From Patescibacteria group bacterium (lineage in GTDB: Bacteria; Patescibacteriota; Patescibacteriia; 2-01-FULL-39-33): a stretch of DNA of 32,000 nucleotides. The notes under the pieces are model-generated. The model worked only from the letters and a program-made list of their open reading frames with translations, searched no databases and had not been told where the DNA came from. The stretch is from positions 150,001 through 182,000 of the forward strand of contig JBAZRV010000002.1 of assembly GCA_041662745.1 (NCBI GenBank). Reading direction: 5' to 3'. Positions 5,578-8,048 of the stretch are shown here, one piece after another. The position numbers and the translations under genes are program-made. The first letter of the stretch is position 1; each line of letters opens with the position of its first letter.

Positions 5578-7032
5578 GTTCGGAAATGTCAAATTTTGTT
5601 GGTTATTTTGGCCGCCTTGGGCGACCAAATCATACGGAATTTTAAAGTCCAAAAGCAATTGGCGGTTTTGTAAAATGCGGTTCGACCCGATATTTTTTAG
5701 AAATGCAGCCAGTTCCTTTTTCTCTGGGCTCTGCATTAGGATATTGGCTTGGTTGAGCGATAAAATAAACTCACGAGCCGGTTCGACCCAAGAAACGCCA
5801 TTCTGTTCAAAATCTTGGATTTTCTCATTAAGTTCTAACTTTCGAGTTAGGATTTTTTGTTTTCTACTGGTATATTCTTCAGTCGTGATTGTCTCGCTTA
5901 AATAGACATCAAGCAGTTTTTCTAATCGCTGGTTAATATTTTCCAATTCGCTTTTAAGATTTTGAACAGTAATGATTGCCTCGCCCTTAGCCTGTTTTTC
6001 CTCTTTGTCTATCTCAAACAATATTTTCTCGGTTTCTTGAGTCGAAATAGAAACTTTTTGAAGATAATTTTTTATCTGATTTTCCAATTCTTCTTCGCGT
6101 AAAAAATGTTTTTCGAGGCAATTCTGCTTTTTCTTGGTACAACGATAATAATTATGGCCTTTCTGTGTCTCGGCCGTAATACTGCAACCGCAAGAACATT
6201 TCAGTAGTCCAACAAAGGGAAAATCATGCTTTTTAATCCTGCCTCGCTTCTTGCCTCTTTGTCGCATGACATTTTTTACTTCTTCAAAAAGTTTCTTAGA
6301 AATCAACGGCTCGTGAGTGCCCTCAAATACTTCTCCGTCATATTTCATTAGCCCAGTATAGAAAATGTTTTGCAAAAGCGTGAAGAAATAACTTGTCCTA
6401 ACTCTTTTGCCGTGAAAGCCCGTCAAATGGTGTTCTTCGCAGAACCTCTCTAAATCGCCCAATGAATAATCCTCAGTGGCGTAGAGGTCAAATATCTGTC
6501 TAATTAGCGGGCCTTTAATAGGGTCGACATCTATACCTCTCGTTTTGGGATTATTCAAATAGCCAATCGGGGCAAGCGAAGGCCAAACGCCATTTCTAAT
6601 CTTTTGCCTCATGCCTCGTTTTACATTTTCTCGCAAGTTGTCGATATAGTATTTGCTTTGGCCAAAAGCGATACTAAGCATGAATAATCCTTGCGGAGTG
6701 GGCTCAAACCAAAAGGTGGGGAATTTGAGGGCTTTTATCGCTCCCTTATCAATCATATGGATTATCTTGCCACCATCAACGCTGTTTCTCGCCAATCTAT
6801 CGGGGTGCCACGAAATAATACCACTTGCTTCGCCTTTTTCGATTCTGGCTAGCATTTCGCCGAATATTATTCGGCCTGGCTCTTTGGCAGTCTTGGCTTC
6901 CTGAAAGGAAGCGACAATTTCCAGTTTTTCTTTGGCGGCAAATTCTTTTAATTCAACTAATTGGGCTTCTATAGACAGTATCTGCCTATCTTCTTCCTCA
7001 GTACTCTTGCGAGCGTAAATAAAGTACTTCAT
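5548..7032 (-). CDS. Large serine recombinase (phage-integrase-type)
   Basis: 494 aa. N-terminal resolvase domain with YARKSTEEE (catalytic Ser) and PDRLARN. Recombinase domain, Cys-rich zinc-ribbon region (LLKCSCGCSITAE...YYRCTKKKQNC), then a coiled-coil region. The last ~40 codons lie in the 100-bp repeat and in antisense tRNA-Val. Confidence 0.9.
   Translation of the reverse strand: MKYFIYARKSTEEEDRQILSIEAQLVELKEFAAKEKLEIVASFQEAKTAKEPGRIIFGEMLARIEKGEASGIISWHPDRLARNSVDGGKIIHMIDKGAIKALKFPTFWFEPTPQGLFMLSIAFGQSKYYIDNLRENVKRGMRQKIRNGVWPSLAPIGYLNNPKTRGIDVDPIKGPLIRQIFDLYATEDYSLGDLERFCEEHHLTGFHGKRVRTSYFFTLLQNIFYTGLMKYDGEVFEGTHEPLISKKLFEEVKNVMRQRGKKRGRIKKHDFPFVGLLKCSCGCSITAETQKGHNYYRCTKKKQNCLEKHFLREEELENQIKNYLQKVSISTQETEKILFEIDKEEKQAKGEAIITVQNLKSELENINQRLEKLLDVYLSETITTEEYTSRKQKILTRKLELNEKIQDFEQNGVSWVEPAREFILSLNQANILMQSPEKKELAAFLKNIGSNRILQNRQLLLDFKIPYDLVAQGGQNNQQNLTFPNWWTLQDSNL
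5571..5670. repeat. IR1 left arm (100 bp), starting at TCCACCA of the tRNA-Val 3' end
   Basis: Block-by-block reverse complement of 5571..5670 equals 7091..7190 exactly (100/100). Confidence 0.95.
5672..5698. repeat. 27-nt repeat d (inside the recombinase 3' coding region, encodes KNIGSNRIL)
   Basis: aaaatgcggttcgacccgatatttttt. Its reverse complement recurs at 7299..7325. Confidence 0.9.
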
Positions 7033-7061
7033 GATGAGATTAATTAATGATTAATAATTTA

Positions 7062-7085
7062 GAATTTAAAAATTTTCTTTTACCC
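7062..7085. repeat. 24-bp perfect inverted repeat, arm A
   Basis: gaatttaaaaattttcttttaccc. The reverse complement is at 7326..7349. Imperfect symmetry continues outward into both divergent upstream regions. Confidence 0.9.
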
Positions 7086-7090
7086 TAATT

Positions 7091-7190
7091 CAAAACCGCC
7101 AATTGCTTTTGGACTTTAAAATTCCGTATGATTTGGTCGCCCAAGGCGGCCAAAATAACCAACAAAATTTGACATTTCCGAACTGGTGGA
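7091..7190. repeat. IR1 right arm (100 bp)
   Basis: Perfect reverse complement of 5571..5670. It ends in TGGTGGA (7184..7190). Confidence 0.95.
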
Positions 7191-7278
7191 GGATAATGGA
7201 CATAGCTCGAACGCATTTTCGGGCCGTCGCAGACGGCACTGATTTTCCCCCAAAAATTAAGCCCGAATTCTGAACTTT
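7184..7278. repeat. IR2 left arm (95 bp, element X in reverse orientation)
   Basis: The reverse complement equals 8169..8263 exactly (95/95). It shares the heptamer 7184..7190 with IR1. Confidence 0.95.
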
Positions 7279-7298
7279 CAAGACTGCCAATGAGCCAG

Positions 7299-7325
7299 AA
7301 AAAATATCGGGTCGAACCGCATTTT
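7299..7325. repeat. 27-nt repeat d, inverted copy
   Basis: aaaaaatatcgggtcgaaccgcatttt is the exact reverse complement of 5672..5698. Confidence 0.9.
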
Positions 7326-7349
7326 GGGTAAAAGAAAATTTTTAAATTC
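7326..7349. repeat. 24-bp perfect inverted repeat, arm A'
   Basis: gggtaaaagaaaatttttaaattc is the reverse complement of 7062..7085. Confidence 0.9.
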
Positions 7350-7382
7350 ATTATTAACATAATTAATTAACTCATAAATAAT

Positions 7383-8048
7383 ATGAACCAAAAAACTTTA
7401 AACATTATTTTTGGAATCGTCATCGTTATTTTAGTTGTGGCTGTAGCCTATTTTGCTTTTGGTAAAAAAGCTGAACAGTTAAGTGATCAAAATGAAAACA
7501 TTAATGTTCCTTTGGTGGACAACAATCAAAATTTACCAACAGCCGAACAGAATCAGAATGTTAATGAGCCAGCAGTGGCCGTGAATACAAACCAGCCAGT
7601 GGTAAATCCCACTCCACCTACAAATCCGATGGCTGACTGGAAATCATACAATAGTAGCAGTTTTAGTATAAAGTATCCTACTTATTTATCGCAAAAAGCC
7701 AAAGAAGATGAAGTTAAATCGCCAGTAACTTCGATAGTATCTTTTCAGGGTACTGCACCTCAAAGCAATTACGGTTCTCTGCTTTCAATTGAACAAATGG
7801 TCAATCAAGGCGGATTAACTTTAACTGATTGGACTAATGAAATAATTTCTCAATCAAAATGGATTAAGCAAGGTTCGGTAAAAATATCCGGTCAAACTGC
7901 TTATATCCTGGTTTTACCAGAAACTGATGCTGGTGCGCGTTACTTTTTCTTGAGTAAAGACGGCCGAACAATGTTTGTTATGACAATACAGCATTTTGAT
8001 CAAACAACAATTGATTCAATTATTTCCTCATTCTTATTGAAAAAATAA
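7383..8048 (+). CDS. Hypothetical membrane-anchored / secreted protein with an N/Q/P-rich linker
   Basis: 221 aa. N-terminal TM (IIFGIVIVILVVAVAYFAF), then a low-complexity NQN..PV linker, then a C-terminal domain with no recognised motif. Confidence 0.6.
   Translation: MNQKTLNIIFGIVIVILVVAVAYFAFGKKAEQLSDQNENINVPLVDNNQNLPTAEQNQNVNEPAVAVNTNQPVVNPTPPTNPMADWKSYNSSSFSIKYPTYLSQKAKEDEVKSPVTSIVSFQGTAPQSNYGSLLSIEQMVNQGGLTLTDWTNEIISQSKWIKQGSVKISGQTAYILVLPETDAGARYFFLSKDGRTMFVMTIQHFDQTTIDSIISSFLLKK

Follow-up and report, generated by a model that had tools for sequence, protein, structure and literature searches.

A large serine recombinase element of Patescibacteria with a second, inverted attachment site that very probably keeps the 3' end of the recombinase gene

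Large serine recombinase (LSR) elements, such as those of phage A118/LI, Bxb1, phiC31 and SPbeta SprA and the TnpX/TndX transposons, usually carry a single phage-type attachment site (attP) outside the integrase gene. Their attP and bacterial attachment site (attB) have no more than a short core in common, and the zinc-ribbon recognition motif of the LI integrase lies 5 bp nearer the centre in attB than in attP (PMC3783163). Here we describe an LSR element in a 32,000-nucleotide stretch of a Patescibacteria group bacterium (GCA_041662745.1, contig JBAZRV010000002.1, positions 150,001 to 182,000; the whole stretch is hereafter called the window, and all coordinates refer to it). The element occupies positions 5578-8263 (2,686 bp) between tRNA-Val(cac) and a ZIP transporter gene, and its recombinase, Rec, has the resolvase, recombinase and zinc-ribbon domains and the predicted coiled coil of the known LSRs, although sequence similarity to solved LSRs was found only in the catalytic domain (a search of solved structures by sequence matched only a resolvase catalytic domain). 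Unlike the described LSR elements, it has attP inside the rec reading frame, which crosses the site, and carries a second, inverted and identical attP; it also targets the generic 3' end and T-arm of many tRNA genes and is tiny (2.7 kb, one cargo gene), with no evident directionality factor.

Attachment sites inside genes are known from other recombinase systems. In the SSV-type archaeal tyrosine integrases (SSV1, pTN3, pT26-2), which target tRNA genes, the attachment site lies inside the integrase gene, integration disrupts that gene, and the complete integrase gene then acts as a directionality factor (PMC8371274). According to a 2021 review, recombinases disrupting the very gene that encodes them are known from Archaea alone (PMC8371274). 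The element described here likewise has its recombination site inside the integrase gene, which is the mark of a self-disrupting integrase, is disrupted by integration and uses tRNA targets. By contrast, the SSV/pTN3 clade is defined by a PF16795 tyrosine recombinase and an archaeal host and its genes are split near the middle, whereas here a serine enzyme of Patescibacteria, and thus of Bacteria, loses about 20-27 C-terminal residues and a spare end is kept. A further parallel is mycobacteriophage BPs, in which attP lies inside the repressor gene and integration alters the C-terminus and the state of the product (PMC4557955); there, however, the gene concerned encodes the repressor, integration is the work of a tyrosine enzyme and a second attP is absent. 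Full-text searches of the literature turned up neither LSR elements with an internal inverted attP nor a self-truncating serine integrase, and the family is apparently undescribed.

The borders of the element, as proposed in a first-pass annotation of this DNA, proved to be real. In six relatives (G001, G002, G003, G004, G005 and G023; in our survey G numbers denote genomes, with G000 the source genome, L numbers homologous loci and C numbers contigs of the source genome), tRNA-Ala and tRNA-Val are followed 7-25 nt on by the ZIP gene, and because tRNA-Val there stands directly before this gene, positions 5578-8263 represent an insertion. In the window, ARAGORN placed tRNA-Ala at 5425-5496 and tRNA-Val(cac) at 5501-5577 on the plus strand, and the ZIP gene (Pfam Zip; 8273-9022, plus strand) forms the right flank. 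The heptamer TCCACCA is found both as the 3' end of tRNA-Val (5571-5577) and as the last 7 nt of the element (8257-8263). The left junction, attL (5571-5670), thus consists of the tRNA, whose T-arm is the B half-site, the core and an arm designated a (the P' arm, 5578-5670, plus strand), and the right junction, attR (8169-8263, plus strand), of an arm designated x (the P arm), the core and the ZIP flank.

Both junctions are repeated inside the element. Positions 5571-5670 are the exact reverse complement of 7091-7190 (100 nt) and positions 8169-8263 that of 7184-7278 (95 nt, or 106 nt at 95% identity), and the two repeats share TGGTGGA (7184-7190), the complement of the heptamer. Since unrelated repeat pairs within the same 4 kb reach at most 16-18 nt, these perfect repeats are far above chance. 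The internal block at 7091-7278, which on the plus strand comprises a' (7091-7183, exactly repeating arm a in inverted orientation), the core (7184-7190) and x' (7191-7278), reads x, core, a on the minus strand, which is the order of the joined ends. An intact end-to-end junction of the attP type is therefore present beside the two split ends, as had been noticed in the first-pass annotation, and it consists of exact repeats of both.

The internal site also bears on the reading frame of rec. In the integrated, truncated form, this gene (5548-7032, minus strand) encodes 494 aa, and its product contains domains above the Pfam cut-offs for Resolvase (PF00239, E = 4e-21, residues 4-150), Recombinase (PF07508) and Zn_ribbon_recom (PF13408), which identify it as an LSR; R8, K9 and S10 were invariant across 29 homologues. 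Codon 455 opens arm a', the minus strand of arm a encodes residues 455-485, and the core falls at codons 486-488, where it encodes Trp-Trp. Past the core, the integrated gene continues for nine codons of antisense tRNA-Val. Read via the internal copy, the frame instead stays open for 27 codons past the core and gives a protein of 514 aa with a tail that starts RIMDIARTHF and a stop codon at 7271-7273. In eight diverged elements, the codons after the core likewise spell the pattern (L/V/I)(Y/L)xx(I/A/V)RTxF. Among the 120 nearest database proteins, 75 end in antisense-tRNA sequence, nine have a long tail and 26 are cut off at the core by the end of their contig. These features very probably describe an integrated LSR element with a second, inverted and intact attP that keeps the true 3' end of the gene, and they very probably represent a trait of the family.

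Comparison of homologous recombinase loci, which had been suggested with the first-pass annotation, covered 80 loci in about 75 further genomes of the class, and about 75 of these loci could be evaluated for the inverted repeat, and showed that the layout is shared by relatives. An inverted repeat flanks rec in 70 of these evaluable loci (median 103 nt, 99% identity), and in 64 of the 70 a tRNA 3' end abuts the 3' end of rec, which is the truncated state. A second repeat pair (x) adjoins the first in 21 of the 50 loci with at least 2.5 kb of upstream sequence available. The inverted attP persists at recombinase identities as low as 39%, and of the 401 genomes of the class that were sampled, 90 have a close homologue of Rec. 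Within the source genome (1.0 Mb), which has six LSR genes, the two nearest paralogues (56% and 52% identity; contigs C4 and C3) show the same architecture in sequences of their own: their arms x and a are 98.7-100% identical to the internal inverted copy, and their own copies of the shorter repeats described below lie at the same distances. The two copies also evolve in concert, as arm x of the G018 element, whose Rec is 92% identical, departs from that of this element at five positions and the internal copy in G018 has every one of these differences. Taken together with the recurrence of the block, in an unchanged position, across homologous elements from many independent assemblies, the layout is, on these comparisons, a conserved design and not an accident.

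Several loci of the survey show further variation on this layout. In L153, L166 and L167, the two attP copies are identical in one arm and different in the other, which suggests that arms may have been exchanged between different elements of one community. In L161 (Ga0210057_1063113), tRNA-Ala, the core and 62 nt of a are joined to the last 13 nt of a', followed by the inverted core and x', so that the entire recombinase segment has been deleted by a collapse inside the inverted repeat. The remaining three LSR paralogues of the source genome (C5:19356-20495, C3:138224-139276 and C4:52209-53258; 32-37% identity) showed no flanking inverted repeats in self-comparison.

The attP and attB arms have only the 7-bp core in common. 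The P arm holds AAAATGCGTTCGAGC, in which GTTCGA lies 22 nt before the core, and in the tRNA the T-loop motif GGTTCGA lies 17 nt before it. In all seven loci in which both motifs are exact, the GTTCG motif of the P arm is exactly 5 bp farther from the core than that of the tRNA T-loop (P/B distances of 26/21, 31/26, 26/21, 28/23, 25/20 and 28/23, and 22/17 here). This offset agrees with the displacement of the zinc-ribbon motif reported when attP and attB of LSRs are compared (PMC3783163). Because the recognition motif is the motif of the tRNA T-arm, the family can use many tRNA genes, and the targets seen include those for Val, Lys, Leu, Ser, Gln, Tyr, Gly, Pro, Ala, Arg, Asn, Glu, Phe, Trp and Thr.

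With this layout, the free form of the element must be a circle with two identical inverted attP sites, one inside the 3' end of rec and the other just upstream of the rec promoter. In the window, the circle has integrated via the gene-internal site, which is now split into attL (5571-5670) and attR (8169-8263); Rec has thereby lost its conserved last 27 residues, and the second attP (7091-7278) has stayed whole with the missing end of the gene. Integration of this kind would yield a truncated and probably crippled enzyme and a locked element. Integration via the promoter-side site, or a flip of the rec segment between the 100-bp repeats, would yield a full-length enzyme beside the tRNA promoter and a mobile element, and the spare copy would represent a built-in way out of an otherwise "suicidal" integration; the need for this spare copy could be why the two copies are kept identical. 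The truncated state is about ten times commoner than the intact state. We put forward tentatively, at an even chance or somewhat less, that Rec is off (truncated, locked, common) or on (intact, beside the tRNA promoter, rare) according to which attP was used, and that the spare copy allows reactivation, either through recombination between the repeats or through a new integration via the other site.

The rarer state is represented by L165, a 10-kb chromosomal contig with ribosomal-protein genes, EF-Ts and tRNA-Ile, in which tRNA-Ala(tgc), the core, a, the promoter, a full-length rec (514 aa), a', the inverted core, x' and an antisense copy of a rec segment designated N follow each other. This locus represents integration via the promoter-side attP, because its order is exactly that predicted for a circle with two attP sites. 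The rec segment was found in one orientation in 64 of 65 tRNA-linked loci. Given that RecA is encoded in the source genome, homologous recombination has substrates in the 100-bp perfect inverted repeats. Another locus, L163 (Ga0210025_1025378), has three attP copies in alternating orientation; they set apart from one another a segment with pilin-like cargo, one with a full-length recombinase and another with further cargo, an order which suggests that elements may grow as an "accordion" of segments.

Several points weigh against this proposal. Neither the pair of attL and attP nor two attP sites are recombined by canonical LSRs, and flipping would accordingly have to depend on homologous recombination. 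Inactivity of the truncated 494-aa form is a prediction, as are flipping and excision in this population. No free circle was seen among six contigs with long-form genes (no terminal overlap). Two further loci with the same joint of tRNA, a and promoter as L165 (L143 and L154) are short or end in a repeat and could be mis-joins through it. No directionality factor was identified in the element, whose only other gene is variable cargo; we know of no common sequence signature for recombination directionality factors. The AlphaFold model of a long-form homologue (29 aligned sequences) is poor as a whole, with a mean pLDDT of 56 and below 50 in the tail, so that it is too poor to show a role of the tail; it contains two long helices at residues 334-414 (pLDDT 80-90), and a coiled coil inserted in the zinc-ribbon domain is predicted. 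Finally, the R-T codons of the tail motif (CGA ACx) complement the GTTCG motif of the P arm, because of which constraint at the DNA and at the protein level is inseparable; the conservation of the motif may reflect the DNA site, and the motif was rejected as a clean sign of selection on the protein.

The arms of the internal site are flanked by repeats that have a different distribution. The upstream regions of rec and of the divergent cargo gene are imperfect mirror images of each other, as the first-pass annotation had described; they are 86% identical over about 57 nt (7034-7088 and 7323-7375) and exact over 24 nt (7062-7085 and 7326-7349). The left arm, p (7034-7088, minus strand), is the promoter and leader module of rec, and the right arm, p' (7323-7382, plus strand), a second such module that drives the cargo gene. 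Both arms differ between subfamilies and match within each element; the palindrome is thus a single promoter and leader module in duplicate, serving the recombinase and the cargo gene. Between x' and p' lies a filler of two rec fragments (7279-7325, plus strand), of which the first, r46 (7279-7298), is a 19/20 copy of rec codons 46-52 (6876-6895), and the second, d' (7299-7325, 27 nt), is exactly complementary to repeat d beside arm a (5672-5698, plus strand). Repeat d is antisense to rec codons 445-453, which encode the KNIGSNRIL (IGSN) motif seen in all homologues. The minus-strand order of d, 20 nt, X, TCCACCA and IR1 given in the first-pass annotation, where X and IR1 denote the right and left ends, was borne out in this way.

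A third fragment, N (rec codons 26-40, 6913-6954), has an inverted copy, in the sense orientation, just outside arm x, where it is split by 66 nt (8061-8084 and 8151-8168, plus strand). The stretch of rec copied elsewhere in the element thus extends over 6876-6954 (minus strand) and comprises N, a 17-nt palindrome (6896-6912) and r46. Extra copies of r46 and N are likewise present in the paralogous elements of C4 and C3. The filler with d' was found, always in the same orientation, in elements with at least 50% recombinase identity (11 of 11, and d in 37 of 37). The copies of d, filler and N are limited to this subfamily and follow the sequence variants of their own gene, unlike the inverted attP itself, which is family-wide.

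Arrangements without rec also occur. In the source genome, one-gene cassettes that lack rec were found at tRNA-Glu(ctc) (C2:108300-109417) and tRNA-Lys(ttt) (C2:196297-198420), with the order tRNA, core, a, a small hairpin, promoter, cargo, N, x and core. In L162, the tRNA, the core and a are followed by a short spacer (AATTA, as here), the promoter and then a gene other than rec. Because the same joint of promoter and arm a follows the tRNA in these cassettes and in L162, the joint p|a' is a native adjacency and not the scar of an insertion. The five nucleotides taatt at this joint (7086-7090) are a remnant of the small hairpin, for example TCTGAATTCGAATTCGG, that lies between arm a and the promoter in relatives, including L158/G018 (with TCTGAATTCGAATTCGG itself), G026, G032 and the elements of C3 and C4. 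The cassette arms are 74-89% identical to the arms of this element, and because of this the cassettes might be moved in trans by its recombinase.

Among other explanations for the layout, the one that survives best is that the element is the frozen relic of a fusion, which we consider unlikely. A rec circle (promoter, gene, attP and r46-d') and a cargo circle (attP, hairpin, promoter, cargo and N) would have fused at attP, after which inversion of the block between the two promoter copies would have locked the halves together, leaving an internal attP without function that is kept identical by gene conversion. This history reproduces every joint in the element, and the cargo cassettes that it predicts exist at tRNA-Glu and tRNA-Lys in the source genome and in L162. 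However, neither an element with the recombinase alone nor an un-inverted block was found (0 of 37), and for this reason the fusion and inversion are offered as a proposal. The layout also holds in subfamilies that lack the duplications of promoter, r46 and d, and the near-perfect identity in most elements and the open long frame in the spare copy point to selection.

It is rather improbable that the internal attP is instead primarily a regulatory site, an operator or promoter at which bound recombinase controls the divergent promoters. Between the two promoter modules, the unsplit attP contains a sigma-70-like promoter, TTGACA-17 nt-GATAAT (7169-7197, plus strand), that straddles the core and faces the cargo gene, with 11 of 12 matches to the sigma-70 consensus, from which the promoter rules of Patescibacteria may differ. 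Because its hexamers straddle the core, this promoter exists only on an unsplit attP; it was found at the same position in nine loci, with varying -10 hexamers, and at attL in 0 of 64. It could drive the cargo gene or a small RNA from x'. The match is nevertheless confined to one clade and L141, and a junction promoter as a family-wide trait was rejected, whereas the inverted attP is family-wide. Moreover, exact identity over about 190 bp goes far beyond the needs of an operator. A regulatory use of the site is compatible with the proposed choice between two attP sites and does not exclude it. A terminator-like hairpin (7223-7237) follows the promoter, and the two could give rise to a short, structured transcript with complementarity to arm x, the arm just upstream of the host ZIP gene.

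Promoters formed by joined ends have precedents in the excised circles of insertion sequences and transposons (IS911, IS30, Tn4451 tnpX), where the -35 and -10 hexamers lie on opposite ends and make a promoter only when joined. The junction promoter described here is similar, and it differs in that it is also kept permanently in the integrated element and is aimed at the cargo and not at rec.

Improbable as well is that the two sites are used by the recombinase for inversion, either as a phase switch for surface-protein cargo, in the manner of a shufflon, or for amplification of the circle, in the manner of the yeast 2-micron plasmid. The latter (FLP/FRT) is a circle in which two inverted recombination sites separate two unique segments and in which inversion serves copy amplification. 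The circle proposed here would also have two inverted copies of a site; unlike the 2-micron plasmid, which replicates and has a tyrosine enzyme, it is no replicon and one orientation dominates. Alternation of site orientation, with three sites around two cargo segments in L163, the occurrence of both relative segment orientations (L163 versus L165) and the fact that some cargo is pilin-like or a PKD surface protein fit an inversion system. On the other hand, the cargo side has one orientation relative to the block in all 37 marker loci, and the single rec orientation in nearly all tRNA-linked loci does not fit a free-running switch. Similarly, Hin/Gin/Pin invertases are enzymes of about 190 aa with a C-terminal helix-turn-helix, 26-bp inverted sites and an enhancer, and both orientations occur in the population, whereas Rec is a 494-aa LSR and one orientation of its segment prevails strongly. 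In addition, no replication gene is present on the elements and known LSRs do not pair attP with attP (PMC3783163).

A reading built on the first-pass annotation is that an ends-only mini-circle of about 234 bp (d, 20 nt, X, core and IR1) integrated once at the centre of a palindromic divergent promoter and has since been a passive nested insert, which now appears very improbable. The part of it that stood is the formal one, as circular permutation of the joined ends with d yields the block, and in C4-type elements the block ends overlap by 10-13 nt, as in a circle opened within a short shared stretch. The mini-circle itself is not needed, as the joint p|a' is native in the cassettes without rec, with a conserved hairpin, and d and the filler are limited to one subfamily. 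It would leave the inverted attP without explanation in the subfamilies that lack d and filler and does not account for a site found in 70 of the roughly 75 loci that could be evaluated, at recombinase identities as low as 39%, with copies that evolve in concert. A nested miniature should be missing from homologous elements and have joints unique to the insertion; no homologous element with an uninterrupted palindrome was seen.

An assembly artefact that mixes integrated and excised forms has a negligible probability: many assemblies do break at these repeats, with contigs that start 150-490 nt upstream of the gene, but the joints p|a' and x'|r46|d'|p' could not be produced by such mixing and recur, with co-varying sequence, in dozens of independent assemblies.

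The remaining features of the element concern its cargo and the internal repeats of rec. The cargo gene (7383-8048, plus strand) encodes a membrane-anchored protein of 221 aa, for which a weak PsbP_2 match below the Pfam cut-off was found and no other domain was assigned; cargo content varies from element to element. The 66-nt insert that splits the N copy (8085-8150) consists of two hairpins (8085-8126 and 8127-8150), which are probably terminators for the cargo gene; the same kind of hairpin insert splits this copy in the tRNA-Lys cassette and is absent from the tRNA-Glu cassette, where the copy is contiguous. The rec gene (5770-6960) is rich in short perfect palindromes and long-range inverted repeats (for example, 6896-6912, 6860-6876, 6049-6064/6281-6296 and 5803-5816/5956-5969).

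New here are the 5-bp offset of the half-sites, the identification of filler, d and N as fragments of rec, the cassettes without rec with their native joint of arm a and promoter, the count of truncated versus intact states, and one solid case of integration via the other attP. Taking these into consideration, the element could be a bacterial serine counterpart of the archaeal "suicidal integrase" with a reset, in which integration either switches the integrase off or leaves it on, and which, together with the cassettes without rec, would make up an integron-like gene shuttle on the T-arms of tRNA genes in Patescibacteria, although we regard this wider reading as speculative and on balance unlikely. 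Serine integrases are prized as genome-engineering tools for their controlled direction. If the proposed reading is true, direction would here be controlled by a new principle, in which integration cuts the integrase's own gene and a mirrored spare of the site and of the gene end is kept, and the idea of the self-disrupting recombinase would extend to Bacteria and to another recombinase superfamily. The family is common, targets a motif found in every tRNA gene and moves single genes of unassigned function, many of which encode surface proteins, in organisms about whose ways of exchanging genes there is very little knowledge.

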